Positions 1 to 39,308 of a DNA stretch of 42,839 bases are shown one piece after another (the first letter of the stretch is position 1; every line of letters starts with the position of its first letter). Under the pieces are notes generated by a model, which worked only from the letters and a program-made list of their open reading frames with translations, ran no database searches and was not told the origin of the DNA. The stretch is taken from positions 1 through 42,839 of IMG/VR virus record IMGVR_UViG_2870464427_000004; one strand, written 5' to 3'. Made by a program: the position numbers and the translations under genes. The DNA comes from a virus (Duplodnaviria; Heunggongvirae; Uroviricota; Caudoviricetes).

Positions 1-552
1 ATGCAAGAGGAAAATCAGAAGCTAAAGGAATGTCCTTCGACAAATATGCAAAAATCTATTGGGCAACCAAGTGATAACGAGGAAACTGAGTTCGAGGAAG
101 TTGAGGAAGAGCTAAGTAACGAGATTATCCAAAACCCAGATGCATTTACTCGCGTGCTTGACCGACCAGAAATTCAGGAAATTGTTGTTGCTCATCACGC
201 ATTCCAGGGACCACTTCCACCACCTTATCTTCTTCGTGGGTATCAGGATATTTTACCTGATGCCCCTGAACGGATTTTCCAGTTGACGGAAAAAGAGTTT
301 GCTCACCGCCAAAAAATGGAAGAAAAGGCCCTTGATGGAGCGATAAACCGGGATAAACGAGGACAATTTTATGGTCTTTCTGCGACTCTTTTTACAGTAA
401 CATGTGCAACCATATTGGGGCTAACTGGTCACGAAATTTTGGCAGGAACAGTGATCGGTACTGTTGTCGCAGTTGCGGGTATTTTTGTTCTTCGAAAAAA
501 ACCAAGCACTAAAAGCAAATCTAAAAACGACAATAACCACGATGAAGAATAG
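1..552 (+). CDS. Hypothetical membrane-anchored protein (acidic N-terminal region, hydrophobic C-terminal segments); possibly 5'-truncated by window edge
   Basis: 183-aa ORF with hydrophobic stretch LSATLFTVTCATILGL...VIGTVVAVAGIFVL near C-terminus; followed by intrinsic terminator. Confidence 0.45.
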   Translation: MQEENQKLKECPSTNMQKSIGQPSDNEETEFEEVEEELSNEIIQNPDAFTRVLDRPEIQEIVVAHHAFQGPLPPPYLLRGYQDILPDAPERIFQLTEKEFAHRQKMEEKALDGAINRDKRGQFYGLSATLFTVTCATILGLTGHEILAGTVIGTVVAVAGIFVLRKKPSTKSKSKNDNNHDEE

Positions 553-572
553 CCCGCGCTGCGGGCTTTTTT
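551..572 (+). terminator. Rho-independent terminator after ORF 1..552
   Basis: agcccgc-gct-gcgggct stem-loop followed by TTTTTT. Confidence 0.7.
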
Positions 573-644
573 ATGGACGAAACAAAAGTCAGTGCTACAC
601 TCATTGACGCCACATTGAGGTGGCTTATAGATGGAAATCTCACA

Positions 645-806
645 ATGAAAAAAGCATTTGCTGCACTGTTCGTTTTGTTGTCTCTGGTGGCTTCAACTCA
701 GGCCTCTGCTGGTCGTTGTCAGCACGACAGCGATACTGCCGCTGACGGCTCCCGCTGCGGTGGGCGCTCTGCGGATTCCCGCCCAGGAGGAGGTGGCATT
801 CGTTAA
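645..806 (+). CDS. Possible small secreted peptide (signal-peptide-like N-terminus, Gly/Arg/Ser-rich tail)
   Basis: Internal ATG at 645 gives MKKAFAALFVLLSLVASTQASA... (53 aa); weak RBS; could be spurious. Confidence 0.25.
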   Translation: MKKAFAALFVLLSLVASTQASAGRCQHDSDTAADGSRCGGRSADSRPGGGGIR

Positions 807-858
807 AAACAAGGCCGCAAAAACGGCCTGTGACATGCCACATTAACTTTTCAGTCAA

Positions 859-891
859 CCGTAGCACGTTCTTGCATACGACGTGCTACGG
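859..891. terminator. 11-bp perfect stem-loop at 3' end of invertase gene (bidirectional terminator candidate)
   Basis: ccgtagcacgt / acgtgctacgg inverted repeat with 11-nt loop, T-run on plus side. Confidence 0.5.
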
Positions 892-893
892 TT

Positions 894-1448
894 TCATTTA
901 TCTCCGACCGGAAACTTCTTATACAAAGTCGATACGCCAACATCATAAATGATCGCCACATTCTGGCGATGAACTCCTGATGCAATTAGTCGCCCGGCCT
1001 GCGCCCATTGTTCTGGTGTAAGTTTGGGACGACGTCCACCAATTCGTCCCTGTGCGCGAGCAGCTTCCAGTCCAGCTTTTGTTCGTTCAACAATCAGTTC
1101 TCGTTCCATTTCAGCCAGGGCCCCCATCACATGAAAGAAAAAACGCCCCATCGGTGTGCTGGTATCAATAGCATCCGTCAGGCTGCGAAAATTAACGCCA
1201 CGTTCGCGCAACTCCTCAACCAGAATGACCAGATGCCGCATACTACGCCCCAGCCGATCCAGCTTCCAGACAACCAGAGTGTCACCTGCCGATAATGTCC
1301 TGAGCAGTTTTTTCAGTCCCGGCCTTTCGGACTTTGTACCGCTTATCTTGTCTTCAAAAATCAGCTCGCATCCTGCACAGTTCAGCGCATTACGTTGTAG
1401 ATCTGTGTTCTGGTCATTTGTTGACACACGTACATAGCCAATAAGCAT
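894..1448 (-). CDS. pin: Serine recombinase, Pin/Gin/Hin/Cin-family DNA invertase
   Basis: N-terminus MLIGYVRVSTNDQ (catalytic Ser motif), VVWKLDRLGRS, C-terminal HTH; sits adjacent to inverted-repeat-bounded tail-fibre segment. True start at ATG 1448 (ORF track extends to 1484). Confidence 0.9.
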   Translation of the reverse strand: MLIGYVRVSTNDQNTDLQRNALNCAGCELIFEDKISGTKSERPGLKKLLRTLSAGDTLVVWKLDRLGRSMRHLVILVEELRERGVNFRSLTDAIDTSTPMGRFFFHVMGALAEMERELIVERTKAGLEAARAQGRIGGRRPKLTPEQWAQAGRLIASGVHRQNVAIIYDVGVSTLYKKFPVGDK

Positions 1449-1502
1449 GGTAGATCTCCCTGACAAAAGCAGGAATGATGCCATTTGCTCGTTATTTCTG
1501 CA

Positions 1503-1528
1503 TTTTCATAAACGTTGGTTTGGGGGAA
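1503..1528 (+). promoter_or_regulatory. Left crossover site (hix/gix-like) for DNA inversion
   Basis: TTTTCATAAACG-TT-GGTTTGGGGGAA resembles 26-bp hix/gix sites (two half-sites around a central dinucleotide). Confidence 0.55.
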
Positions 1529-1594
1529 GGCTCTGCATTGCCTGTTGGTGTACCGGTTCCGTGGCCCACCGCCACACCGCCAGCAGGCTGGTTA
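1515..1594. repeat. Left inverted repeat (80 bp, perfect match to reverse complement of 3040..3119)
   Basis: Direct comparison of plus strand 1515..1594 with reverse complement of 3040..3119: identical; partial similarity continues inward. Confidence 0.9.
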
Positions 1595-2032
1595 CAGTGC
1601 AACGGAGCTACGTTCACCAAAGAACAATATCCTGTTCTGGCCAGAGTCTACCCGACCCTCCGTCTTCCCGATTTGCGCGGTGAGTTTATCCGTGGATGGG
1701 ACGACGGGCGCAAAGTTGATACAGGACGTAAGTTGCTGTCCGCACAAGGGGCAACGCTGTTAAGAACAGCAATGCTGGATTATTATAACCAGGACACTAC
1801 GGGAACCTCGGGGATAGTCGGCATGGGATTCAACAATGAAGATTCCATTACAGACCTTCGTGAGGGCAGCTTTAAAATGCCGGACGGGACAACATTCAGC
1901 GATCCTGTCATAGCAATGTCAGACAATGGTATGCAGGCTACTATTCTGACCTCTATCAGAAGCGGGTATGCGAAGGGTATCACTGTCAGACCCCGTAGCA
2001 TTGCACTTAATTACATTGTGAGGGCAGTTTAA
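1517..2032 (+). CDS. Silent alternative tail-fibre C-terminal cassette (no N-terminal constant part in this orientation)
   Basis: Translation [25 protein letters not shown]... shares the junction peptide with the expressed fibre at 2653..3474 and ends NYIVRAV; no plausible own start or promoter. Confidence 0.7.
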   Translation, partial: GLGEGSALPVGVPVPWPTATPPAGWLQCNGATFTKEQYPVLARVYPTLRLPDLRGEFIRGWDDGRKVDTGRKLLSAQGATLLRTAMLDYYNQDTTGTSGIVGMGFNNEDSITDLREGSFKMPDGTTFSDPVIAMSDNGMQATILTSIRSGYAKGITVRPRSIALNYIVRAV

Positions 2033-2646
2033 TGAGTAACACTGCAGTTCTGGATGAAAACGGTATCGCCACTGTAGCGGGCGATATCACTGTATATCAC
2101 TATGACGAGGAAACCCGGGAATACACCTCATCCTCTGTGGAGTATCTCGCCCTTGGGGTGGGTACTCCGGCACATTCGTGCGCCGATGCACCGCCGGAGG
2201 CAATTTCGGGTTACGTGGTTTGCCGGACTGCCACGCTGAACGGGTGGGAGCATGTGCCTGATCACCGCGGCGAGACGGTATACAGCACGGAGAACGGTAA
2301 CCCCGTTCTGATTACCCAACCGGGTGATTACCCGGCGGACACCACCACAAAACAGCCTGCCACACCATGGGATACCTGGAACGGTGAAGCGTGGGTAACT
2401 GATACTGAACGGCATAGAGCCGCAGAGCTGGAGACTGCCAGACTGCAACGCCAGAAACGGGTGGATCAGGCGATGAAGTCCATCGACCTCATCAACCTCA
2501 AACTGCGGGCAGGTCGCAGTCTGAAACCAGAAGAAACGGCAAAACTGAACGCCGTGCTGGATTATATCGACGAGCTGAACGCACTGGATATCAGCAAGGC
2601 ACCTGAAATCAGCTGGCCGGAAGCGCCACTGGCGCTTGCCGGCTGA
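2032..2646 (+). CDS. Tail fibre assembly protein (Tfa / Mu U-like chaperone), coupled to the silent cassette
   Basis: 204 aa, start overlaps cassette stop (TAATG); typical Tfa-like sequence with conserved C-terminal region. Confidence 0.8.
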   Translation: MSNTAVLDENGIATVAGDITVYHYDEETREYTSSSVEYLALGVGTPAHSCADAPPEAISGYVVCRTATLNGWEHVPDHRGETVYSTENGNPVLITQPGDYPADTTTKQPATPWDTWNGEAWVTDTERHRAAELETARLQRQKRVDQAMKSIDLINLKLRAGRSLKPEETAKLNAVLDYIDELNALDISKAPEISWPEAPLALAG

Positions 2647-2652
2647 ACGGTA

Positions 2653-3474
2653 TCACGCCGCCCTCACGATATAGTTAAATGCGATATTGCGGGGGCGAGC
2701 TGATACATAAGCCCACCAGTCATATCTTTGTGCACCTTTAGAGGATGCATCAAATATCCACTTTTTGCCATTTATGACCCCCAGTTGATTAGAGGTTAAA
2801 GCGTCACCAAATCCGTATTGTGTAGAGCCGAGCGAACTGATATCTCCGGTATCATTATCATCAAAACCGGATACGATAGTCCCTTCCTGAAATGAAAGTA
2901 GCGCACGCCCGGTATCAACCTTGCGACCACCGTCCCATCCACGGATAAACTCACCGCGCAAATCGGGAAGACGGAGGGTCGGGTAGACTCTGGCCAGAAC
3001 AGGATATTGTTCTTTTGTAAAGGCGCGCCCGTCGCACTTTAACCAGCCTGCTGGCGGTGTGGCGGTGGGCCACGGAACCGGTACACCAACAGGCAATGCA
3101 GAGCCTTCCCCCAAACCAAGGTTTTCGAGAGCCGTTTCCACCGTGCCATCCGATTTGATATCACCAAACGGATTCTTGCGGCTCAGGTATTCAACAGCAA
3201 ACCCCGATCCCAGCAATTCAACAAAACCGGGCAGATCACCATTATCAAGCACATCCCGTTGCGTTTTATCACTTACAAACTGGGCCAGAGCTGCAGCAAT
3301 AAAGCTGGCCTGCCGAATAACCTTATTGACTTGCGCACTGGAGGCTTTCCCTGCTGTAAATCCAGATAAAAGCGCGGGCAACGCTTCCCATTCCTCCTGC
3401 GATATAACATTGGCATTTCGATCCGTTGCAAACGCTTTAAAGTCATTTTTCGCCATCAGAGTAATACTCCCCAT
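2653..3474 (-). CDS. Tail fibre protein (constant N-terminal part plus currently expressed variable C-terminal part)
   Basis: 273 aa; crosses the right inverted repeat; likely true start at ATG 3456 (ATGA overlap with upstream gene stop). Confidence 0.85.
3040..3119. repeat. Right inverted repeat (partner of 1515..1594) with hix-like site CTCTCGAAAACC-TT-GGTTTGGGGGAA on minus strand (3105..3132)
   Basis: Perfect reverse-complement identity with 1515..1594; left half-site closely matches the Hin hix half-site. Confidence 0.9.
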
Positions 3475-4136
3475 GCTCCTACATCAAAACCACTGATGAA
3501 TTCGTTATCCATATCAAAACCAAAAAATTTTGAGCCTTCCGATGGGGTTTCCACCGAAGGTGTTTCAATGCCACCCGCCCATACCCCGGCGGCTTTTACT
3601 GTGAGATACCCCTGTTTAATTGCCGCAATTAACTCACGCGATACATCTGAAATATCAGTATCAGGAAAGACCCAGACCGATATCGTCATGTCCTGGTTAT
3701 CGACTATCTGCATTCGCAGTCCGGATCCTGCTGTTGCCGCGTCAAGAATTGCCGGAAGCGAATCATTCCGTCCGTCCCAGTTATTAATCGCAATCTTCGC
3801 TTTAAGGATGACACGATAAGTTTCATCGCTGAGGTACATGTGTCCGGAATCAGGATCGTATGGCCCCTGCCATACACCCTGATCATATCCAAGCCCGTCG
3901 GTATCCCAGCTGAAATAGGCACCTGAAATAGGCTGGCTGACAACACGGCTACGTCCGATCCACAATCCCAGAATGTCAAGTTGCACACCAACCGCAGAGT
4001 CAAAATCAAATGCAGTAATCAGCCCTCTGGTGGCAGCCGCAACATCAATAAGCGGCCGGGTCATCAGATCAACATGTGCAAGAAATTTAGGTTTGGTGGC
4101 GTGGTAGTTCGTGATTAGTTCGGTGTATTTGCTCAT
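3456..4136 (-). CDS. Baseplate/tail protein (Mu gp48-like, putative)
   Basis: 226 aa, position between baseplate J-like gene and tail fibre; translationally coupled. Confidence 0.55.
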
Positions 4137-5332
4137 GACTCCACCGTTATAACGATATTTTCCGGGGTACAGGACGCAGATTCGTTGTATCTGATATCAA
4201 TGTTTGATGACGACAAAGCCCCCGGGGATTTCCCAATCGTCAGTTCCTGAATATCGTAATAGCGTGCATTCCCGCCACTCACCACGCCAAGATTCGCCGG
4301 TGAGTAAATGCGACTTAAAAGGACCGAATCACCAATCATCAGACTATTGATATAGTCGGAAATAGCCTGCTGGATCTGCTGCCCTATCTGTGAGGTATAA
4401 CCCGTAAAAACTTTTAATTTAATCCGGGCATAAACAGGCACATCACTGGAACGCGAAAATTTGATTACATGGGGATTGCCGTATTTATCCGGAACCGTAA
4501 CGGATGTTGTACCGTGAGTGGCTGTCCCCGGGCCTTTATTCCCTCTGATAGCCTGAGCAATATCCGTCACATCACCGCCATCCACAATTACAGCAACAGA
4601 GTGTGGCGGTAACCCGTTACCGTCCTCCGAACCATTATCGTTTTCATAGAGTTTGTGGCGGGTTACACCGGTAACATTAGAAACAGCACCATCCAGTGCT
4701 TCAAATGGGGTTATTGATGGCAACGCAACACTTTGCGACTGTCGGATACGTAACTCCGCATCAGTTTCTGCCGGAGTGCCCACAGTAGCCGCAGCAGGAT
4801 TGGTTACCGAAACCCAGCCACGGGTTGGCGTATTAATTTCAGTGATAGTTCCAGCCAGCGCCGCCACTGCACCACTGACGGAACATGTTGCGGTCACCAT
4901 CACTGTACCATCCACGCCGACCACCACTGAAGCAGGCAAACGCCATATCACATTATTACTGTCTTTCACGCTGCCATTAATGATGGTTGTTCCGGCAGTT
5001 CCTGTAAGAAGCAAATCAACCGTAGAGTTCGTCGCGCCTTTACGTGAAATACCATTTATTTTCACGTTACTGGTCAGTGCAGCCCCATAGCCGGTTGCTG
5101 GTGAAAAACAGTTGTAGACAGTTATCGCCATATTATTGGCATCATGAATCGCCAGCGCCATCAGAGCCACCATCTGACCGTCCTTACTGTCCGGTTCGAG
5201 GTAGGCATCACTACCATAAATCTGCTGAAAATAGCTAATCAGGGTGCTGAGTATCGTCTGATAATCAGGCGCACTGATCCCCTCCGCGGTTACCTTTGCA
5301 GATAAACCGAGAGAATCAAGGTTCAGAGCCAT
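4133..5332 (-). CDS. Baseplate J-like protein (Mu gp47-like)
   Basis: 399 aa, size and position typical of baseplate J family; overlapping start/stop with neighbours. Confidence 0.65.
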   Translation of the reverse strand: MALNLDSLGLSAKVTAEGISAPDYQTILSTLISYFQQIYGSDAYLEPDSKDGQMVALMALAIHDANNMAITVYNCFSPATGYGAALTSNVKINGISRKGATNSTVDLLLTGTAGTTIINGSVKDSNNVIWRLPASVVVGVDGTVMVTATCSVSGAVAALAGTITEINTPTRGWVSVTNPAAATVGTPAETDAELRIRQSQSVALPSITPFEALDGAVSNVTGVTRHKLYENDNGSEDGNGLPPHSVAVIVDGGDVTDIAQAIRGNKGPGTATHGTTSVTVPDKYGNPHVIKFSRSSDVPVYARIKLKVFTGYTSQIGQQIQQAISDYINSLMIGDSVLLSRIYSPANLGVVSGGNARYYDIQELTIGKSPGALSSSNIDIRYNESASCTPENIVITVES

Positions 5333-9187: not shown

Positions 9188-11175
9188 TAACCCACCCTCA
9201 CCTGATTACTTCGCATGACCTGAGCATTTGCAGACTGTTGCCGACGTGCAACCTCATTACCGACAGCGTGCGGATCTCCGCCACCGTAAATGTGGTAGGT
9301 ATTTTGCTGGTTAACCTCTGTCACTTTGCCACTAATTCCTGCCACGGCAGCCTTATTAATCAGCTCTCGGGAATAGATATTTCTTCCATTTTCATGCTGG
9401 ATAATGCTGCTCATCAATGCTGACATGGTTTGCGGATCGCTCATATTCAGGGCAGCCCGGGGATCCACTCCCAGTCGTTGCGATACAGCCCTGATATACG
9501 CAGTTGTGTTGTTATTATCAGACGCAGGTGCCCAGGTAGAGATAATTTTCTCCACACTGTTTATTCCCCGTCCGGCGTACAGCATTAACTGACGAGCAAG
9601 AGCCCGTAATCCATCAAAAGCAGTTTCAAATCTGGCAAATCGCCCGCCCGGGCGTTCAAGAGAAGCCCCTGCCTGACCAGCAAAATTAAGGTTTCCCGGA
9701 TTGTTATTCCGTTCTCCTCGTTTCGTAGCCTGTGCATATTGTTCCGGCTCATCATCACCAAACCAGCCGCGTACCGTCCGGCCCACACTGCGGGGATCGA
9801 ATCCCCAGTGCTCTTTAATCCAGTCGGCAGTACTGTTAGCGCTGTCTGTAACCATCGGCATCGCTGACGGATTTTCGCTGCCCTGATTAAGTATCTGTTT
9901 GCCGATGCTGACGGCATCAGCCCAGCGGCCATCTTTGATAGCGTTGAGCAGGTCAGCGATCATGTTCAGCATTTTGCTGAATTCGCCCATCTGGTCGATG
10001 AAGTTGCTGAAATCCCACTTCAGGGACCATGATTTGGGGTCAATATTGAGCAGTTTCGCCAGCGCTTTCACCAGGTCGTTAACGGTCGTTTTAAGGTCAC
10101 GAACCATCTTCAGCGCGGCATCGACCTCCGGTTTCCACTTGCCCCAGTCAATCAGGCTGTCGCCGCCTTCCTTCCAGGTCTGATAGTCCTCCCACAGGAG
10201 GGCAATACCCGCCGCCAGCGCGGTAATGAGGCCAATCGGCGACATCCAGAACGTACTGTTCAGAATGCGCAGCGCAATCGTCAGTGCGCCAAACAGCGAG
10301 ATCAACTCCCGCGTTTGCTTATCCAGCGATTGCCACCAGGTGATAAGGCCTGATGTCCCCTCAATCAGTCTGAAGAACAGCCGCCCGATAATATCCCCGA
10401 GCGCCAGAATGCCTTTTATGGCTTTCGTCAGGGTCTGCTCGATACGAGGGAAGTTGTCCAGGATATGGCGGCGCAGGGTGTCCAGCGAACCCGCAAGCCC
10501 CCCCGCAAGATTAGAGCCGATTTTGTCACGGGCCATGCCTGCCATCGCGCCAAACTCACGCAGGGAGGTCATAAATTTGTTGGAGCTTCTGGCCGCCTCG
10601 TCAGCATTGAAGCCGATAGCTTTCGCCATTGCGCTGTACTGCCCGGAGAAGCCACCCACACCCCGGCGCATCGCCATAAGGGTATTTTCGTCAATGCCCA
10701 GCATCTGCGCATACTGGTTAGCCCGGTAATACGGCATGCTGCTGAGTTTCTGTCCAACGCCCGTAAAAATAGCGGCCATGTCACGCATGTTACCGCTGGC
10801 ATCACGGGTCTGTACGCCCAGGCGATTCAGAAAGCCTTCTGCACCGGGATTGTTACGAATAAACCGGGAGAGGCTTTCCAGAGAAGATCGCGCAGCGTCC
10901 ACGCTGCCGCCAACCTGCGAAACCGCATAGCCAATAGACTGAATTCCCTGGACTGTCGCGCCGGTGCGCTGTGACGCCCAGTAAAGATTATCCAGGCCGG
11001 AGGCGATCTTAGCCGTGAAGGCCACCACGGACAGCGCAGCTCCTTCAACAGCCAGCCCCATTTTGATGACATTTGCAGTTGTACCGGCGAGGACAGAACC
11101 GAACTTTTTCGCTCCTGCATCATCCACACTGAAGCCAAGCGAGACGAGGAAATCTTTAATAGTTTCAGCGTTCAT
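9187..11175 (-). CDS. Tail tape measure protein
   Basis: About 660 aa, Ala/Gly-rich, internal hydrophobic segments; ATG at 11175 preceded by GGAGAGAGG RBS (ORF track start 11196 is TTG). Confidence 0.8.
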   Translation of the reverse strand: MNAETIKDFLVSLGFSVDDAGAKKFGSVLAGTTANVIKMGLAVEGAALSVVAFTAKIASGLDNLYWASQRTGATVQGIQSIGYAVSQVGGSVDAARSSLESLSRFIRNNPGAEGFLNRLGVQTRDASGNMRDMAAIFTGVGQKLSSMPYYRANQYAQMLGIDENTLMAMRRGVGGFSGQYSAMAKAIGFNADEAARSSNKFMTSLREFGAMAGMARDKIGSNLAGGLAGSLDTLRRHILDNFPRIEQTLTKAIKGILALGDIIGRLFFRLIEGTSGLITWWQSLDKQTRELISLFGALTIALRILNSTFWMSPIGLITALAAGIALLWEDYQTWKEGGDSLIDWGKWKPEVDAALKMVRDLKTTVNDLVKALAKLLNIDPKSWSLKWDFSNFIDQMGEFSKMLNMIADLLNAIKDGRWADAVSIGKQILNQGSENPSAMPMVTDSANSTADWIKEHWGFDPRSVGRTVRGWFGDDEPEQYAQATKRGERNNNPGNLNFAGQAGASLERPGGRFARFETAFDGLRALARQLMLYAGRGINSVEKIISTWAPASDNNNTTAYIRAVSQRLGVDPRAALNMSDPQTMSALMSSIIQHENGRNIYSRELINKAAVAGISGKVTEVNQQNTYHIYGGGDPHAVGNEVARRQQSANAQVMRSNQVRVG

Positions 11176-12259: not shown

Positions 12260-13405
12260 TTAGCGAACAACGTTAATCTGTACGTCAGCGTAATGAACCG
12301 CGCCTGCAAGTTTTATTGCAGCCTGAATCACCGGAGCCTTACGGGCTTCACGTTCTGATTGTGCCTGTTCATCCAGCGGCTGGGCGTATACGTAATAACC
12401 TTTGGGCAGCGTGTCACCTGATGACAACTGACCCAGGTCGCCACCGTTCCATACGCCCGGAGCAATCAGTCCATTCTGAACGGCCTGATCCAGTGATTTT
12501 TCAACATTTGATAACAGTCGGGTAATACCGGCTTCAGTCTGGGGAACTTTCGTGGTGCTGGTATAAAGCAGGTTATAGAGGCTGGTCTGCACATAATTCT
12601 GTAACCAGTCCAGGCCGTGGCGTTCATCAAAGAAATCGCCGTTAGCCATCACTCCCTGCTGGAGGATAGCTGTATCATTCTGGTAGTACACGAACACATT
12701 GCAGTTTTTTGCATCAAGTGCCGATGCCTGGCTGACTGTCAGTGTTTCATACCCGACCCCCGGCTCCTGCTTAAACTTGAGCGTAATCGCGGTATTACTG
12801 CCATTGAAATTAACCGTGAATGCCCGGCCAAATGCAGATAACGCAGCGTATTTATTACCCGATGAATACTGAATAAAACTGCGTGAATATCCGGCGGTTT
12901 TCAGTTTTGATGCCAAATCATCTCTGGATGCAGTCTGCAGGCATTTCTCATCGCTTGTCGTAATCGCCAGAATACGGCTTACAGAAGAGGATTCGATCGC
13001 CGCAGCCACTTTCAGCCAGTCTGCATCCGGAATATCTTCATCGTCTGCAATCCCCAGTCCATACCATGAAGTATAATCAAGCATGGCATTCACAGCCTGC
13101 TCCAGCGTCTCAGGCGTGGCCTGTTCGCTGTCTCCCTTCGTTTTCACCCAACGACCGACAAAAACCTCCTGAGGTTTCGGTGATTGTGAGAAAAACACCT
13201 GCGCAGCTTTATATTCTGGTGATTCCACGCCAAAATCTTTTCCAATATCTTCCGCGGCAGAATAACGACGAATGCGCTCACTTACCGGAATGATTGTGGA
13301 CGGGCCGAGAATGAGTAATGCACCAAAATTTCGCCCTGATGCTGCACGCGGCGACATGATCACATCAACATTAACAACGTTTGATACAGGCAAGCCCTGT
13401 GCCAT
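12260..13405 (-). CDS. Tail sheath-like protein (putative)
   Basis: 381 aa, conserved position upstream of tube, chaperone and tape measure. Confidence 0.55.
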
Positions 13406-13408
13406 AGC

Positions 13409-14017
13409 TTAATCTCCGAAAAAGATGACTGGTGCTTCCACCAGCGATTTAATACCGTACTCGCGCACAACCTTCCGGCGCAGGCGCACCGTCATATCGT
13501 AGCGGCGGACCCATTGCTGATTAATAAGTTCAGGGAAGGGAGTCAGACCTGTGTAATCGCCAAGAGACAGCCCCAGCGCATTCAGTGCTGCGTTGTTCTG
13601 CGGTACAGATATACCGTCACGAAACCGGGACGCATACACCATCCCCGCCGGACCATAAAACGAAGCCATACACTCAATCGTTTCATGCCGCCAGAGCTGA
13701 GAGCCATCATCGGTCTGTCTGGTGAATGCCGGACTGTCATCACCTGACCATCCGATAACCCCAAACGCACACCAGTTCGTTTCAGCCGGTAGCAGTGGCG
13801 GTTGCTCTTTCTGCCAGCGCGGACGAACCATCCCGGCAGACAGACCGGAAACGTTACGCATCCACTGGCTTAACAGCCTGTCGAGCGCTTCGTCATAATC
13901 CGGATCGCCACTGGTTGGTATCAGCCATCCGCGCTCTGTGCTGGTGTTATTGCTCAACCGAAATTCCCCCATCAAACGGCAGCAACTCACAATGCGCCTG
14001 AACGAATCCGGCACCAT
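13409..14017 (-). CDS. Tail/neck structural protein, hypothetical
   Basis: 202 aa ORF in structural operon; start uncertain. Confidence 0.45.
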   Translation of the reverse strand: MVPDSFRRIVSCCRLMGEFRLSNNTSTERGWLIPTSGDPDYDEALDRLLSQWMRNVSGLSAGMVRPRWQKEQPPLLPAETNWCAFGVIGWSGDDSPAFTRQTDDGSQLWRHETIECMASFYGPAGMVYASRFRDGISVPQNNAALNALGLSLGDYTGLTPFPELINQQWVRRYDMTVRLRRKVVREYGIKSLVEAPVIFFGD

Positions 14018-14336
14018 ACGCTGTATACGGGTCGACGAAAGTCACACGATAATCACGGCCCTGATACGTCACGATATCGGCATCACGGCCAGTCTGTCCC
14101 TGCGTCAGTCGCTCAGTCGTCACAATCAGAATTGCACCACTGATTACCTGCCCGGCCTGCATACGACGGTTTTCCAGAGAGCGATCAACAGTTACGACTC
14201 CGGCAAACTGCTTTTTAACTTCGCTGTCGCTGCCGATCCCGTCCTCATCCACCGTTTGCACACGGCGTGTTACCCACAAATTGAAGTCGCAAAAATCGGG
14301 GTCAAAAAGCACATCTGTTACATCAAGAGTCGGCAT
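13947..14336 (-). CDS. Head-tail joining protein, hypothetical
   Basis: 129 aa ORF in structural operon. Confidence 0.45.
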   Translation of the reverse strand: MPTLDVTDVLFDPDFCDFNLWVTRRVQTVDEDGIGSDSEVKKQFAGVVTVDRSLENRRMQAGQVISGAILIVTTERLTQGQTGRDADIVTYQGRDYRVTFVDPYTAYGAGFVQAHCELLPFDGGISVEQ

Positions 14337-14877
14337 TTTTATCCCTCACAACATGGGTAATCGCTCTGCGATATTGCCCGGTGTCAATTAATGGTTTCGC
14401 CAGTTCGGTTCCCGGGGATTCGCCAGCAGCACGCCGGGCAAGTTCCAGTGTTGCCCCCTTGCGCCCCCGACGAGCCCGGGCTTCAACAGTACTGTCAGCA
14501 AGCGGCGTAAAGCCGGTAATGGTCATGTAACGCCTGACGCCATTAACGGCCAGCGTTCCGGCACGGTTGAGTGCGCTTTCTGCTCCCGCAGCATTACCAT
14601 CAAGTGCAGCCTGCGCCGCGGTTTTGAGCTGCGGCACCGTCAGCTCTTCTGCCGATTTAACGCCGGGGACCAGGTGAGGTCGTGGCGGGATGTTCTGCTC
14701 TGGTGAGCCGTATTCGTTGAGGTAACCGATGCCCGCATTACCAAACGGAACATCATCCCGCCCGCTGTCTTCCGAAGGGATGCCGACCAGCACATCTTTT
14801 TTGGTTAACGACCTGAGCGCATCCAGAATGGCCTTAGCGTTATCCACCCTCGTTGTTACACCGCTTTTGAAACTCAT
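14323..14877 (-). CDS. Virion morphogenesis / tail completion protein (putative)
   Basis: 184 aa; motif [12 protein letters not shown] resembles phage virion morphogenesis family; position between head and tail genes. Confidence 0.45.
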
Positions 14878-15281
14878 AGCTGGCGACCGCCTGCACCGAA
14901 CACCGTGATCAACTGATAAAATTCAGCGCCATATCGGGTGTTATTCCAGAAACCTGCGTCAGGGTTTAGCGTCGCGCTGGTGTCATAGCTGACGCTTACC
15001 TTGTCAACGGACTTGGAGGACTGAACACCATTGGTTGAGCCACCCGGGCCGCCGACGAGCATTGCCCGGCTATCTGCCGCCCAGAGCGTCATGTAGTGAG
15101 CCACGAACAACTCGACAAAGTACGGAAACAACTCTTTGCCGGTGACGTTTTCGCTCAGCAGCGCATCAGCCAGATTCAGACGAAACTGGATTTGTGCTTC
15201 GGGATATTTGGCAGGGTCAGCAAACTGTGGAAAGTCGCGCCGAAAATCACTTACTGTTGGCAGGCTTTGATTCTTTGGCAT
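14874..15281 (-). CDS. Head-tail connector protein, hypothetical
   Basis: ORF 14874..15365 with likely internal start MPKNQSL at 15281. Confidence 0.45.
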
Positions 15282-15615
15282 CTTTCGCCCCATTACCGCC
15301 AGTCTGGGCGGCAGCAATCTGCGCTTGCAGGCTGTCGTTCTGCTCCTGCAGTTTGAGCAATGCATCTTTCAGATCGGCAATCAGCTTATCTTTGTCGGCA
15401 ATCTGCGCTTGCAGGCCGTCGATAATGGGTTGCAGATCATCGGTGTCGCTAATCACGCTTTCGGAAAGCTCAGAGTGCGCCTGGGTGAACCAGTGCGACG
15501 CGACCTCTTCCGGTACGTTATGCCGTCCCCGGCCAAACTCCTGTTTTGACTGATCGCCGAGCGTCAGCGTAAACGGGGTGTGAACATGGATGGTAACCAG
15601 CTTTTCTTTCGCCAT
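15247..15615 (-). CDS. Hypothetical head-associated protein with coiled-coil C-terminus
   Basis: Internal start [11 protein letters not shown] at 15615 with AAGGAA RBS. Confidence 0.5.
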
Positions 15616-15628
15616 TTCAGTTTCCTTC

Positions 15629-15644
15629 AGGCCCCTTTCGGGGC
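15629..15644 (-). promoter_or_regulatory. GNRA-tetraloop hairpin just 3' of major capsid gene (transcript attenuator/stabiliser candidate)
   Basis: Minus strand GGCCCC-GAAA-GGGGCC, 12 nt after capsid stop; no U-tract. Confidence 0.35.
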
Positions 15645-15655
15645 CATTCTGGTTA

Positions 15656-16597
15656 TCAGATACCGTCCACATAGGACAGAGTTTCTTTATACACTGGCTC
15701 GACTGCACCCAGCTTGCCGTAGTAAGTGACGATCTGATACAGACCGCGATACTGCACCGGCACGCTCTGAAGCGGAACCAGCGGGTAGCGGACGTATTTT
15801 TTATCGTTGGTGTACGCAACCATGCGATCCTTACCCCCCACACCACGGCCTTTCAGCCATTTAACCGCGCGGATATTCAGCGGAACACCGTTCTGGTGAT
15901 AGCTGATGGTGTTGGTCTGAAGGTACGTCAACAGGGACTGGTTACCCGCAGATGAAACGATGATGCTGGACAACAGAGCAAACTGCTCAGGCGGGATCAG
16001 CAAATCACACGGAACCACAGAGTAACCGGAAGCGGCCCACGCATCAGACAGCACCTGGTTAATGCTTGCGCGGATTTCGTCCGGTGTTGAGGTTGCCCAC
16101 TTTTTGGCAGCGTTGTTGACAGGCACGCCGTCCAGGGTAACAAGGCCTTTCAGGTTTAATGCGGAATCGCCAACATACACCTGTTCATCGTTATCCATCT
16201 GCCATTTCAGTTGCATCCCGTCATACTTCTGCGTATCAATCGGGCGTCCGGCCTGCTGAGCAGCCTGCAATTCTATGACCGTCCAGCCAAGTTCCATCCC
16301 CCACAGGTTCAGCGGGTTACCGGATTTGCTGATATCCACGTTCACGCCAGCAATAGCGGTTGAGTCTTTGCCTACCCAGTTTTTGCCATTCGGATTTGCA
16401 CCAGTACCCGCAGCGGCGAAGCTGGTATTCGTCCAGCTGGAAATGTCATCTGCGATAGACACGTCTTCACGCAGTTGAATATCTCGGGTCCAGGTGTACC
16501 CCACCAGAGGCAGGTTCAGCGTCTGGTCGAGTCGCTCCAGCTCCCCGATGAGAAAGGCACCGGAGCTATCTACGGTTGCCTGATCAAAAGTAATCAT
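15656..16597 (-). CDS. Major capsid protein (Mu-like head subunit family, putative)
   Basis: 313 aa, position after decoration/scaffold genes; followed by strong hairpin. Confidence 0.75.
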   Translation of the reverse strand: MITFDQATVDSSGAFLIGELERLDQTLNLPLVGYTWTRDIQLREDVSIADDISSWTNTSFAAAGTGANPNGKNWVGKDSTAIAGVNVDISKSGNPLNLWGMELGWTVIELQAAQQAGRPIDTQKYDGMQLKWQMDNDEQVYVGDSALNLKGLVTLDGVPVNNAAKKWATSTPDEIRASINQVLSDAWAASGYSVVPCDLLIPPEQFALLSSIIVSSAGNQSLLTYLQTNTISYHQNGVPLNIRAVKWLKGRGVGGKDRMVAYTNDKKYVRYPLVPLQSVPVQYRGLYQIVTYYGKLGAVEPVYKETLSYVDGI

Positions 16598-22079: not shown

Positions 22080-22631
22080 TTAGCCCATCATTTTTTTATA
22101 CGCTTCTGCAGCCTGCTCCGGCGTTAAGTTGGTAATTTCTGTTCTGACTGGTCCTCCGTCAGCACCAGTCACTTCATTTTTGACGTTGTCTTTAAACGCC
22201 TGAACAGAAATATGGCGCCCAAGCAACTCAAGGTTTTTAACCTTATCAGGCCATTTGATTTTCTTCAGAAGTGCGGCGCTATCTGCGGATACCATCTCCA
22301 CGACATCCATTCCTGATAGCGTTGTGCGCCATACCTTAGGCCAGTCTTTAATGGGTTTTAGCTCACCGTTTTGCAGGAGAATGTCAAGCACATCCATCTG
22401 GTCGATTTCAATAAGGCGATTAAGTACATATTCTGCATTAATACCAACAAGATCATTGCGTTGCGCTTTCAGTTCGGCGATTCTTAACTTGATGTCAGGT
22501 TTTGACAGGTTTTCGGATGCGGTACGGTTAGCTGTCTTAGCGCTGTACCCCGCCCGAATAGCCGCTTGCGTGGCGTTTAAATCGATGAGGTACTCGCGAC
22601 AGAACATCTCTTGTTTGTCGGTGAGCGCCAT
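22080..22631 (-). CDS. Terminase small subunit
   Basis: 183 aa; N-terminal [13 protein letters not shown]...[12 protein letters not shown] motif typical of small terminase family. Confidence 0.8.
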
Positions 22632-22647
22632 TTAGTTACCTCGGGGA

Positions 22648-23109
22648 ATGATAATGAATTTATTAGATTTTTGTGTTGAAAAATATGAATCTGGAGAGCG
22701 GTCCTTCAGAAATGGAGTAGAACCAAACAAAGATAAAGTTGCTGAAATGCTGAACTTTGTGTTTACAACTCTTAAGAATGGCATTCAGGATGATGTAAGC
22801 AATTATCCCTCCATCAAAGCCCTGTTGAATCTCGAGTTGACCCCAAATGGCGGATTTAACATGAACTATCTCCCAGATCTTATCGCGCTTGTATTTGACG
22901 TTGTAACCGACCGGAATCGTAACCCGGAACTTTGGTTTCAAAAGATAGGCGGCATTTCTGATGAAATATCATTCACAATCTCTATACTTCTGTACGGTCC
23001 TATTGGGCATGTAACCCATTCAGGTAAAGGGGCCGCATATGGGAAAAATTATGAATCAGTTAGGTCTAATCTCATAGATGATTTGGATGCAAATATTTTC
23101 CACGGATAG
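22648..23109 (+). CDS. Hypothetical protein, opposite-strand accessory gene between terminase and lysis modules
   Basis: 153 aa ORF, AT-rich by eye, opposite strand to the whole late operon. Confidence 0.6.
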   Translation: MIMNLLDFCVEKYESGERSFRNGVEPNKDKVAEMLNFVFTTLKNGIQDDVSNYPSIKALLNLELTPNGGFNMNYLPDLIALVFDVVTDRNRNPELWFQKIGGISDEISFTISILLYGPIGHVTHSGKGAAYGKNYESVRSNLIDDLDANIFHG

Positions 23110-23246
23110 GATTTTGAGTTCTGATTTAACGGAGAGAGCAATCTGGCCCGGGGCACCGATTCGATGGCCTCCCAGTCCGGTTTTGCCATGAATTTTTCCT
23201 CTTAGTGACATTATCGAAGCTCCTTATCAAAGGAGCTTCTGTAATG

Positions 23247-23459
23247 TCAGTCCCGAACAAACGTAACCTTCGTGTTTGTCGCTCGCCTTACAAGGCGCGC
23301 CGCTTCGCGTTGCATTTCATCGATAACTTTTGGCGTCATCGGCTGATGCGCATATTTACGTTCAATCTCTGCAAAAATCCCGTTCATCGTTTCGCTGTCT
23401 GGTGGGATAACTTCAACGTTTAATCGTGCCATTAGTTTGTGCTGCCCTGTTTTTCTCAA
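23247..23459 (-). CDS. Small hypothetical protein downstream of spanins
   Basis: 70 aa ORF, basic, last gene of lysis cluster. Confidence 0.4.
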   Translation of the reverse strand: MRKTGQHKLMARLNVEVIPPDSETMNGIFAEIERKYAHQPMTPKVIDEMQREAARLVRRATNTKVTFVRD

Positions 23460-37634: not shown

Positions 37635-38204
37635 TTAGTCAATGCCTTTTTGATTGAACTTCTGATTCTCCAGTATGCTTTGCAGCTCAATATTATCATT
37701 TGCAGCGGTTTGTTTATGCTCATGATATTTTTCTTGCGTATAATTTCTTTCTCTTAGTTTCTGTGCGTAATTATTAGAAATAATATCATGACGATCTTGT
37801 AATACTTGTTCAAGTTGACTTTTAAAGTCCTCTATCTTTTCATTAGAAATAACATTTTTGTACTTTTCAATATCACGGCGAAGTTCTTTTTCTTTCTTCT
37901 TATTAATGCTTAATAACTGTCGATTAACGCTACCTAAGGACCATTTAAACCCAATCGACTTTATCCAATGCGCCAGAAACATAGCGCAACTGGGAAGCAT
38001 TAATAAAAGAAATGGCTTTATTGTATTTAAATCAGAACCAATATACGGAAAACGACCGTCCCACGAGGACACCAGTAATGTTAAAAAACCAGTGATGCCA
38101 CCAGCAGCAACATTAGAAATCAGAGGGACTTTTTCGTAGCTATCAGGTTTAGAAGCGCTACTCAAACGTCCCTCCTTTGACTGATCTTCCAGCACGAATG
38201 GCAT
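37635..38204 (-). CDS. Membrane protein with C-terminal coiled-coil (cassette gene 3)
   Basis: 189 aa; two hydrophobic helices then Lys/Glu-rich coiled-coil; very AT-rich; may start at internal Met (38000). Confidence 0.5.
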   Translation of the reverse strand: MPFVLEDQSKEGRLSSASKPDSYEKVPLISNVAAGGITGFLTLLVSSWDGRFPYIGSDLNTIKPFLLLMLPSCAMFLAHWIKSIGFKWSLGSVNRQLLSINKKKEKELRRDIEKYKNVISNEKIEDFKSQLEQVLQDRHDIISNNYAQKLRERNYTQEKYHEHKQTAANDNIELQSILENQKFNQKGID

Positions 38205-38406
38205 TCATTGCAATTTTGTAAAATTCATCATCAGAAGAGACATCAACGACATCGCGACGGACAACTCCTTCTGAGTCAACACATTCAAGAACAAGATGAT
38301 GTTTAGGCATAAGCGCAAAGCGTAACCGGTCAAACCCCATCTTAAGAACCCAATATAGTACGGGAAGCAGGCTAAAAAAAGCCAGCCAAAAAGCAAAAGC
38401 AATCAT
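38158..38406 (-). CDS. Small membrane protein (cassette gene 2)
   Basis: 82 aa; N-terminal TM helix MIAFAFWLAFFSLLPVLYWVL. Confidence 0.5.
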   Translation of the reverse strand: MIAFAFWLAFFSLLPVLYWVLKMGFDRLRFALMPKHHLVLECVDSEGVVRRDVVDVSSDDEFYKIAMNAIRAGRSVKGGTFE

Positions 38407-38429
38407 AGCCCCCTCCCCATGTGAATCTA

Positions 38430-39308
38430 CTATAAGATGCCGTGTACTTTAACAACTATGTACGTTTTGTCCAGCGAATTCAAGTTCTCACGGACGAGCA
38501 AATCAACGCAGTAAGCATCACTAAAAACACCAGGTTCTCTTCCCGTACTAACACGTTGTAAGAACTCAGTATCTTCTATAGACACGCTGATTGTGTCATC
38601 GCCATAGTTGACTCGCCAGCCTGTGTTTTTATCCTTATGAATAGTCAAAAATGTGATTAGAGCCTCTTCAATCACCCTTTCAGACAAGGACTGCACTACA
38701 GGAACGCGCCTATATCTGAACGGTTCAATATTATCTTCGTGCACCTTAATCAGCTCAACCCCCTGTTGAGTTGAAATTTTAAGCGATTCGTATCCTTCCT
38801 TTTGCAAAGGATTATGAATTAACTTCGATAAGGATTTGCGTATGCTTGGTGAGGCAAGTAAAGGCCGGAAATATGACGGGGCTATAATTTCCTCACCATC
38901 ATCCATAACTATTTTACAGTCTCCTTCCGCTGTTAAAGTCAACCGTTTTATTTGCCTACCATTGATCTGACGAATTAAGTCAATGAGAGTATTTCCTGCT
39001 GCGAGTGCAGTTGTACCTCCAAGCCCAATAATGCTTAATATATTCAAATGGTCAAGTGGATTTTGAATAACATCAATCAAATACTCAAATGAGCCTTCCT
39101 TAAAAGGCTCAACCTCAACATTAATACACTCACTAGTGCCATTGACAACCAAATTAACTTCTTTAAGCAAGTTGTTTAGTCCATTCAATGACTCAGTTAA
39201 AACATCCAAATCTATTTTATGATCTGCTAGTGCGGGACCATCATATTTAACAACTAATTTATCAGTAATATTTTCTTCTTGCTGGACATCTGTATAAGCT
39301 GAGGTCAT
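38430..39308 (-). CDS. Hypothetical soluble protein (cassette gene 1), unknown family
   Basis: 292 aa ORF, AT-rich, divergent from SNF2 helicase gene across a 67-bp spacer. Confidence 0.65.
   Translation of the reverse strand: MTSAYTDVQQEENITDKLVVKYDGPALADHKIDLDVLTESLNGLNNLLKEVNLVVNGTSECINVEVEPFKEGSFEYLIDVIQNPLDHLNILSIIGLGGTTALAAGNTLIDLIRQINGRQIKRLTLTAEGDCKIVMDDGEEIIAPSYFRPLLASPSIRKSLSKLIHNPLQKEGYESLKISTQQGVELIKVHEDNIEPFRYRRVPVVQSLSERVIEEALITFLTIHKDKNTGWRVNYGDDTISVSIEDTEFLQRVSTGREPGVFSDAYCVDLLVRENLNSLDKTYIVVKVHGIL

Follow-up and report, generated by a model that had tools for sequence, protein, structure and literature searches.

Among the described systems, the one closest to the locus studied here is the pid gene of phages P22 and BTP1, which lies on the opposite strand in the late operon, between the lysis/rha and the packaging genes (Cenens et al. 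2013, PMC3573128). The pid promoter, Ppid, was mapped by Wolput et al. 2022 (PMC8835761), who gave its -10 element, its transcription start site (TSS) and an "exceptionally long 5'UTR"; the same work describes Ppid activity as weak and independent of the repressor, and reports two up-mutations of the -10 element. Prophage defence genes that are antisense in lytic operons form a second group, represented by Tab of the Pseudomonas phage JBD26, TerI of the Listeria phage phi10403S and Tha/Ith of the S. aureus phage 80alpha. Tab, TerI and Tha have their own promoter, are expressed from the prophage and are switched off either by lytic transcription or by a partner encoded in the lytic operon. In phage lambda the accessory gene bor is found between Rz/Rz1 and the terminase genes, directed against the late operon, and is expressed in the lysogen; its product is a lipoprotein with a signal sequence. 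Finally, the P2/P4 phages have hotspots of antiviral systems, which are fixed sites of temperate phage genomes, bounded by core genes, in which many AT-rich cargoes are exchanged (Rousset et al. 2022, PMC9122126).

In the present work the opposite-strand gene ORF151 was analysed in a stretch of viral DNA of 42,839 nucleotides, called the window throughout. Our main reading, to which we assign as a whole a probability of about 0.5, is that ORF151 is an accessory ("moron") cassette exchanged horizontally between prophages, placed in a slot that abuts the start of terS, the gene of the small terminase subunit, and that it is probably expressed from a promoter inside terS and may act against competing phages.

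The ORF151 locus

A first-pass annotation of the window had reported an AT-rich orphan ORF of 153 aa on the plus strand (22648..23109), amid a minus-strand operon and with the terminase and the lysis cassette as its neighbours. An ORF is indeed present at this place, and the locus is composed as follows.

22080..22631, minus strand: terS, Terminase_2 small terminase subunit (Pfam E 6e-40), the conserved left anchor of the slot
22632..23155, no strand assigned: extent of the swappable cassette, from the alignment with sibling E. coli prophages
22643..22647, plus strand: Shine-Dalgarno (SD) sequence GGGGA for the start at 22654, read from the sequence
22654..23109, plus strand: ORF151 coding sequence (151 aa, 16.9 kDa, pI 4.84, eight helices predicted)
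23130..23189, minus strand: 5'-terminal fossil (MAKPDWEAIES...) of another terS type, which is unrelated to the first, recognised by translation
23206..23249, no strand assigned: inverted repeat with 20-nt arms, 90% complementary, and a 4-nt loop (z = -3.49 for the region)
23247..23459, minus strand: small late-operon gene, phrog_12811 (61 aa in RefSeq), in the fixed right flank

The reading frame given by the first-pass annotation was right, while its start and length have to be revised: the ATG at 22654 yields 151 aa, and the true start of ORF151 is 22654, not 22648. This assignment follows from the RefSeq entry WP_001050348.1 ("hypothetical protein"), which starts at ATG 22654, from the spacing of the SD sequence, since GGGGA is only about 1 nt away from ATG 22648, and from the Klebsiella homologues, in which the upstream ATG is missing. 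The SD sequence of ORF151 abuts the complement of the terS SD sequence (GAGGT, 22638-22642, minus strand) inside the 22-bp divergent gap. The literature search found no paper in which WP_001050348 is named. Composition statistics bore out the AT-richness, as the GC content of the ORF is 38.7% versus 50.0% for the window, which corresponds to the 2.8th percentile of 462-bp windows.

On the lysis side the minus strand carries the phrog_12811 gene, Rz1/LysC, Rz, a GH24 endolysin and a lambda-type holin, and the Q antiterminator gene is located farther along, beyond the lysis cassette. The phrog_12811 gene is not specific to ORF151 loci. The inverted repeat lies between the convergent ORF151 and this small lysis-side gene, starts 97 nt past the ORF151 stop codon and belongs to the fixed flank, outside the cassette. 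It has no U-tract and therefore is not a canonical intrinsic terminator; the terminator scan detected no canonical terminator 3' of ORF151 and did not flag the repeat. It is possible that the repeat acts as a 3'-end or stabilising hairpin.

ORF151 codes for a conserved helical protein

Spurious ORFs of 100-300 aa are common antisense to genes in the window, thus the length of ORF151 alone is no evidence for a gene. Nevertheless, ORF151 is a protein-coding gene under purifying selection. In a large protein database full-length 151-aa homologues of 55-91% identity were found in Klebsiella aerogenes, K. oxytoca and Serratia fonticola, and codon-level comparison of ORF151 with two Klebsiella copies gave dN/dS values of 0.20 and 0.33. 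The reverse-strand frames are not kept open (69-101 codons). An exhaustive profile search among 1.84 billion cluster representatives retrieved 26 family members, all of them about 150 aa long. From a 29-sequence alignment AlphaFold2 predicted an eight-helix domain with a pLDDT of 91.1 and a pTM of 0.87, while the pLDDT was merely 69.6 when an 8-sequence alignment was used.

The conserved residues of the family are concentrated in the motif D-L-I-A-L-V-F-D-V-V-T-D/E-x-N-R-N-P-x-L-W. Among the members F68, D75 and F81 never vary, and N88, W94 and G115 almost never do; D75, D/E82, D/E86 and N88 make up a conserved acidic face of a helix. ORF151 has no transmembrane segment, hydrophobic segment or signal peptide, and it is predicted to be a soluble, acidic, all-helical single-domain protein without recognisable relatives in sequence or fold. 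The predicted eight-helix domain had no fold relative in the PDB and BFVD, no member of the family matched anything in Pfam, PHROGs, NCBIfam or PADLOC, and the PADLOC-DB v2 HMMs gave 0 matches for ORF151 even at E <= 10. There was no homology to the core structural, packaging or lysis families of PHROG, Pfam and PDB either. The statement of the first-pass annotation that the ORF has no recognisable motifs agrees with the 0 matches in Pfam, PHROGs, PADLOC and NCBIfam. The term "orphan", which it had also used, has to be qualified: ORF151 is a member of a small family that has diverged deeply while keeping its synteny, and that extends from Enterobacterales to Pseudomonas and Castellaniella. Both the protein family and its fold appear to have no earlier description.

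Position of the family in distant prophages

Across very distant lambdoid prophages the family keeps its position, with the lysis genes on one side, terS on the other and the gene itself on the opposite strand; in Enterobacterales usually no other gene separates the homologue from terS, from which it diverges. In the E. coli and Klebsiella loci the gene diverges from terS at a distance of exactly 22 bp from the start codon; this constant gap was seen in ten loci (L003-L010, L012, L014), in prophages that differ in their large terminases and lysis cassettes. Homologues of 62% to 38% identity are divergent from a Terminase_2 terS in L015, L017, L018 and L019, with extra cargo between the homologue and terS in L017 and L018. 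In L011, L020 and L109 the homologues are divergent from an unrelated terS type, the product of which starts with M-[AT]-K-P-D-W-E-A-I-E. The cultured Pseudomonas phage PseuP_222, the sole match among 50,697 phage records, carries a homologue of 25% identity beside this "MAKPDWEAIE" terS type, with side and strand kept. In L110 the homologue is near a DUF2280 terS, in a Castellaniella prophage it adjoins the lysis cassette, and two metagenomic phages also carry a homologue in the kept arrangement. In each of the 17 contexts compared the GC content of the homologue was 4-21 points below that of its own locus, and this deficit argues for a foreign origin of ORF151.

The small genes of 62-71 aa that precede the homologues in L105, L107 and PseuP_222 were considered as conserved partners or relatives of Pid, but they proved to be unrelated to Pid; the genes of L105 and L107 are mutually related, and neither is related to the small gene of PseuP_222. 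Similarly, the 86-aa gene of L020, a candidate for the same role, is related neither to Pid nor to the PseuP_222 gene. No conserved co-directional "anti" partner accompanies ORF151, unlike in the case of Tab, TerI and Tha. As a separate observation, the conservation of the position in hosts as far apart as E. coli and Pseudomonas also fits a role in the late functions of the phage itself.

An islet of Aeromonas is the exception to the position at the terS/lysis junction. The homologue of Aeromonas hydrophila closes an islet of 32% GC, surrounded by a genome region of 63-66% GC, and it is located 50 nt downstream of, and co-directional with, genes matching PDC-M43A (E 1.3e-10) and PDC-M43B (E 2.9e-19) of the PADLOC candidate defence system PDC-M43. 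The islet is repeated on a second contig (99% identity for M43B), yet the two islets are near-identical and consequently they represent a single observation. The Aeromonas subtype comprised only two clusters in 5.8 billion proteins. PADLOC gave no match for the Aeromonas homologue, and PDC-M43 was named in no paper found in the literature search. The adjacency to PDC-M43 is the only direct defence link of the ORF151 family, and it is circumstantial.

Gene exchange at the start of terS

In the sibling E. coli prophages, which are identical to the window to the left of about 22635 and to the right of about 23156, an unrelated gene of 182 aa replaces ORF151 between the identical flanks; one of these siblings resides in a BL21-derived laboratory strain. 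The fossil terS, which corresponds to the first approximately 20 codons of the second terS type and has intact homologues in L011 and L020, is common to the loci carrying ORF151 and to those carrying the 182-aa gene, and it serves as the anchor for recombination on the right of the cassette.

The first-pass annotation had regarded the terminase-lysis junction as a common site for accessory genes, and a wider comparison strongly supports this view; the roles it named for such genes (defence, anti-defence or conversion) are candidate ones for ORF151. Eighty viral contigs encoding close relatives of the terS were collected and joined with the earlier loci; among the 79 loci counted, 75 have a divergent gene that starts within 130 nt of the terS start, and these genes belong to at least 19 unrelated families. 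The pid moron of P22 is found in the homologous position. The distance between terS and the divergent gene is mostly 12-30 nt among the cluster representatives, and the first divergent genes code for 49-192 aa and are nearly all ORFans. Within this terS lineage the flanks of the slot are fixed, while its occupant is one of many mutually unrelated genes. Of 5,426 complete E. coli genomes, 207 contained the terS 5' end and 5 contained ORF151, therefore ORF151 is a rare occupant of a common slot. E. coli CUVET16-465, EC0585, A41, CFS3292 and TB06053 are natural lysogens.

No cryptic homology of ORF151 with 18 other slot cargoes could be detected (hhalign probability below 1%). Several functions suggested by eye for the cargoes found no confirmation: for the 182-aa protein as an ADP-ribosyltransferase and for a 144-aa protein as a PD-(D/E)xK nuclease there was nothing in Pfam or PADLOC, and the 190- and 204-aa proteins gave only sub-threshold values as HEPN proteins (E 0.009 and 0.006, respectively). 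The latter protein is encoded elsewhere in L019, and its hint came from the PADLOC CARF_HEPN model (E 0.006). The Pfam search of the slot cargoes likewise returned sub-threshold hints only (HEPN_RiboL-PSP, DUF2441, CxxCxxCC). PADLOC had no match for the nine alternative cargo proteins scanned; taken together with the same result for ORF151, this makes guilt by association a weak argument. An opposite-strand moron at the lysis-terminase junction is already known, while the extent of the hotspot abutting terS appears to be without earlier description.

A putative promoter within terS and its relation to pid

The 22-bp gap is too small to accommodate a promoter, so any ORF151 transcript must begin inside terS. 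Two elements of the plus strand are of importance here.

22456..22484, plus strand: putative weak sigma-70 promoter (-35 TTGCGT at 22456-61, 17-nt spacer, -10 GATTCT at 22479-84)
22491..22653, plus strand: inferred 163-nt 5'UTR, antisense to the ribosome binding site and codons 1-47 of terS, homologous to the 174-nt pid 5'UTR

When the region was compared with phage genomes by megablast, the match to P22/BTP1 was confined to 22387-22633, that is, the 5' end of terS (75.7% identity), and in BTP1 the matching stretch adjoins a gene annotated as "Pid regulatory protein". P22 and BTP1 contain at this place a pseudogenised N-terminal remnant of a Terminase_2 terS, which later goes out of frame, and pid diverges from this remnant; the DNA homology with the window ends at the terS start codon. 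All the mapped elements of the pid promoter are inside the terS remnant. The putative promoter of the window, which lies antisense inside the terS coding sequence with a TSS-equivalent at about 22491, aligns column for column with Ppid (TTGCTT / 17 nt / AATCCT) and matches the consensus at 6 of 12 positions, the same as Ppid. The consensus promoter scan did not flag it. Judging from this homology, the sigma-70 promoter would be the best candidate for driving the expression of ORF151. The fold of the leader RNA was not significant (z = -1.45) and Rfam had no match in the leader or in the flank.

The codon usage of terS is suggestive in the same respect. Arg50 is encoded by AGA or AGG in 62 of 62 distinct sequences, supplying the essential T6 of the antisense -10 element, and Arg58 is CGC in all the 62, from which the G of the -35 TTG derives; the five Arg positions other than Arg50, Arg58 included, use CGN, and two of them vary among the CGN codons. 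This pattern may support the antisense promoter, although it is confounded by the coding constraint on terS and by the shared ancestry of the sequences, and the lineage offers hardly any terS without a divergent neighbour for comparison. Codons 9-30 of terS are nearly frozen at synonymous sites, and the same stretch is the best conserved one in the non-coding fossil of P22.

The ORF151 protein itself is not a homologue of Pid, as BLASTP produced no alignment at E <= 100 and the hhalign comparison of the family profile with Pid gave a probability of 0.1%. In K. oxytoca prophages a true Pid homologue (36% identity, E 1e-12) comes after the ORF151 homologue in the same orientation; this side-by-side pair indicates that ORF151 and pid are neighbours in one locus and not alternatives to each other. 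The Results and Discussion of Wolput et al. 2022 (PMC8835761) contain no mention of the pid promoter and leader being inside a decayed terS. On the basis of the alignment, this location of the pid promoter and its long leader appears to be without earlier description.

Proposed role of ORF151 and the alternative explanations

The following model of the cassette and its expression seems likely to us. ORF151 would be transcribed weakly and constitutively from the terS-embedded promoter in lysogens and in incoming or carrier-state genomes, and a 163-nt leader antisense to the terS start would be made in the process. Upon prophage induction the late transcription, antiterminated by Q, would run head-on through ORF151 and silence the gene, according to the "noncontiguous operon" logic. 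As regards the protein, it may be a binding or inhibitor protein that helps the lysogen and the resident prophage by interfering with competing phages. This anti-phage role in phage-phage conflict is put forward tentatively, at clearly less than even odds; it is preferred because the slot turns over, the composition is AT-rich and foreign, the hosts are diverse, similar architectures serve as precedents and a homologue adjoins PDC-M43 in a single case. The wider proposal, according to which ORF151 is a new single-protein anti-phage or anti-defence effector with a helical fold not seen before, and the weak terS-embedded promoter is the shared platform of dozens of interchangeable conflict genes, pid included, in an unrecognised hotspot of lambdoid phages, is rather doubtful at present.

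Besides this reading, other functions have to be weighed. ORF151 might be a modulator of host physiology of the Pid type, which would bind a host regulator or enzyme in the lysogenic or carrier state and rewire metabolism (lysogenic conversion). The slot, the strand and the upstream DNA are the same as those of pid, a true Pid homologue follows the ORF151 homologue in K. oxytoca prophages, and a small acidic helical protein without a catalytic motif would suit such a task. The two proteins are unrelated, however, and the high turnover of the slot is more typical of conflict genes. In addition, the family spans Enterobacterales, Pseudomonas, Aeromonas and Castellaniella, and this wide host range argues against a host-specific target such as DgoR. 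We consider this explanation improbable.

An equally improbable explanation is that ORF151 is an anti-defence protein, produced constitutively from the moment of genome entry, which neutralises a host immune system by binding. Temperate lambdoid phages usually carry their anti-defence genes in early operons, which counts against this possibility, and fast, high-level expression would be poorly served by a weak promoter directed against the late operon, although a repressor-independent promoter, as Ppid is, would fire early from the incoming DNA. The protein is small, acidic, single-domain and without detectable homologues, its gene has a low GC content and its slot turns over rapidly, all of which would be in line with an anti-defence function, but no known anti-defence fold was matched in the PDB and BFVD. 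The Aeromonas homologue adjoins a candidate defence system, as an inhibitor or immunity-type gene might.

It could also be supposed that ORF151 serves the late programme of its own phage, i.e. that the protein or the antisense leader tunes the translation of terS, packaging or the timing of lysis. The linkage to the terS start is strict and ancient, as it persists with at least three families of terS that are unrelated to one another, the proposed leader has complete complementarity to the ribosome binding site and codons 1-47 of terS, and terS codons 9-30, near-frozen at synonymous sites, are also the best-conserved part of the P22 fossil. On the other hand, ORF151 is present in only about 2.4% (5/207) of the E. 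coli genomes having this terS 5' end, and since it is replaced by many unrelated genes, packaging cannot depend on it. If the role were antisense, there would be no need for a conserved 151-aa protein under purifying selection, and the leader has no significant structure. The chances of this explanation are low.

It is very unlikely that ORF151 is a third gene, stranded alone in the prophage, of a multi-gene defence system akin to PDC-M43. The Aeromonas homologue is co-directional with M43A and M43B in one islet of 32% GC and the arrangement is repeated on a second contig; nevertheless, the near-identical islets count once, the subtype consists of two clusters only, and genes resembling M43A or M43B are absent from the window and from about 20 prophage contexts. 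The reading as a spurious ORF, a chance frame antisense to read-through late transcription, is effectively refuted by the family search, the structure prediction and the dN/dS values: long chance ORFs are frequent in the window and the database annotation never goes beyond "hypothetical", but the full-length protein is conserved down to 25% identity, dN/dS is 0.20-0.33 while the antisense frames are not conserved as open ones, the SD sequence is properly placed for the start at 22654, and the 29-sequence alignment yields a pLDDT of 91.

Returning to the moron cassette and its possible anti-phage role, if ORF151 is a conflict gene, it would represent a new protein family and fold in prophage immunity or counter-immunity; if it turns out to be inert in phage challenge, it would be an ordinary moron. 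In either case the hotspot is defined precisely and can easily be searched, since in lambdoid prophages it is the place of the first gene that diverges from terS, and the sibling cargo in the BL21-derived strain makes it experimentally accessible. Moreover, the odd transcription layout of P22 pid would receive an evolutionary explanation, namely that the promoter and the long leader lie in a decayed terS.

Comparison with known systems

ORF151 resembles lambda bor in its location and orientation, but it is a predicted cytoplasmic protein and is not known to be homologous to Bor. With Tab, TerI and Tha it shares the layout of a small opposite-strand gene in a lytic or late operon, and Tab adjoins terS as well. 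There is no sequence or fold relationship between these proteins and ORF151, and no conserved self-immunity gene on the lytic strand accompanies ORF151; its right-hand neighbours vary and its only constant neighbour on that strand is terS, of at least three unrelated families. The antisense nesting typical of the Tab, TerI and Tha genes is plainly seen in the ORF151 locus, while the own promoter is a putative one, proposed from the homology with Ppid.

The similarity is the closest to pid of P22 and BTP1. Both genes are on the opposite strand in the late operon, the order being terS <- ORF151 -> <- lysis in the window and terS fossil <- pid -> <- rha <- lysis in BTP1, and their upstream DNA is homologous, including the -35 and -10 elements of Ppid, the TSS and the long 5'UTR, as far as the aligned sequences tell. 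Pid and ORF151 are both small, soluble helical ORFan proteins; they are unrelated and differ in length (86 aa for Pid and 151 aa for ORF151), and a dgo phenotype is known for Pid. P22 retains only a dead fossil piece of terS, whereas terS of the window is a working gene. The pid gene has a functional Rho-independent terminator, while 3' of ORF151 only the U-less 20-bp hairpin in the flank was detected.

Like the P2/P4 hotspots (Rousset et al. 2022, PMC9122126), the slot of ORF151 is a fixed site of temperate phages, bounded by core genes and open to many AT-rich exchangeable cargoes. It differs from them in belonging to the lambdoid group, at the junction of the lysis genes and terS, and in that its cargoes are mostly single small ORFans without PADLOC matches, which appear to share a promoter embedded in the neighbouring core gene.

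Cargo slot next to the small-terminase gene

The site immediately upstream of, and divergent from, this type of small-terminase gene (terS) was compared in a series of viral contigs (L022-L101), in which at least 19 unrelated gene families, encoding products of 49-192 aa, were found to fill it.

~1850-2000 of each contig L022-L101, and 22632-23155 of the window, divergent from terS: cargo slot

In the cluster representatives the gap between the terS start and the cargo gene was mostly 12-30 nt, and 69 nt in one case. Nearly all of the slot genes are ORFans and had no match in Pfam, and PADLOC gave no match among the nine slot cargo proteins scanned. The terS-divergent slot looks like an unmined cargo hotspot.

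Two elements lie on the right-hand side of the cassette.

23130-23189, minus strand: fossil of another terS family, unrelated to the first (5' end only, MAKPDWEAIES...)
23206-23249: inverted repeat with 20-nt arms, 90% complementary, and a 4-nt loop

The second terS family is intact in L011, L020, L109 and the cultured Pseudomonas phage PseuP_222, and its fossil end in the window shows where recombination bounds the cargo cassette on the right. The inverted repeat overlaps the stop codon of the small late-operon gene (phrog_12811), lacks a U-tract and belongs to the fixed flank, which the window has in common with the prophages carrying a 182-aa cargo protein; it may be a 3'-end hairpin or a palindrome (TGACATTA...TAATGTCA) to which a protein binds.

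Among 62 distinct terS sequences the synonymous sites of codons 9-30 (window 22540-22605) were almost invariant, and the neighbouring codons varied freely. This conserved stretch could act as a linker in recombination, or else be a leader element or a site related to pac.

Other islands and prophage copies

Two further low-GC regions were found, one of them in the window itself.

37635-39308 of the window, minus strand: second low-GC island (33-43% GC) in the early region, opposite-strand
3549-5420 of L104 (Aeromonas hydrophila), also in L108: islet with 32% GC in a genome region of 63-66% GC

The island of the window encodes a 292-aa protein matching PDC-S42, a candidate defence family of PADLOC (E 6e-40), and, weakly, DUF7946; it is preceded by proteins of 82 and 189 aa, which we read as putative membrane proteins, judged from their hydrophobic stretches. 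The Aeromonas islet contains a co-directional trio, namely a PDC-M43A-like gene (REC-like), a PDC-M43B-like gene (HATPase_c) and a relative of the 151-aa accessory protein gene. An ABC/AAA ATPase encoded nearby gave strong PADLOC matches to mad3 (6e-39) and AriA (4e-19).

The prophage of E. coli CUVET16-465 (L001) is otherwise near-identical to the window, but its DUF2213 head gene (region 12511-15702) is split by an IS100 (istA/istB) element, so the copy is probably defective. A defective prophage of E. coli NEBExpress_Iq, a BL21 derivative (L102, 818-4320), carries the same terS with a 182-aa sibling cargo (WP_000762846.1), and a pseudogene annotated as 'anti-CBASS protein Acb1 family' adjoins its large terminase gene. 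Viral contig L013 (IMGVR_UViG_2690315994_000029; 44-4267 and 9856-10739) repeats the terS-terL segment several times, in tandem or in part, which reflects either an assembly artefact or local amplification.

Comparison with pid of P22 and BTP1

455-717 of BTP1 (NC_042346.1), minus strand: pseudogenised N-terminal remnant of a Terminase_2 small terminase
~40741-40984 of P22 (NC_002371.2): equivalent of the BTP1 remnant
6600-6854 of L007-L010 (Klebsiella oxytoca prophages), plus strand: homologue of P22 Pid, 84 aa (36% identity, E 1e-12)

The 174-nt pid 5'UTR has been termed 'exceptionally long' (Wolput et al. 2022, PMC8835761); a terS origin of the promoter or 5'UTR is absent from the Results and Discussion of that paper. 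The mapped pid promoter, the TSS and this 5'UTR lie within the pseudogenised Terminase_2 remnant, and within the non-coding fossil of P22 conservation is highest in the stretch matching terS codons 9-30. In the K. oxytoca prophages the Pid homologue lies directly downstream of the homologue of the 151-aa accessory protein gene, on the same strand. Relatives of Pid therefore exist beyond the Salmonella phages.
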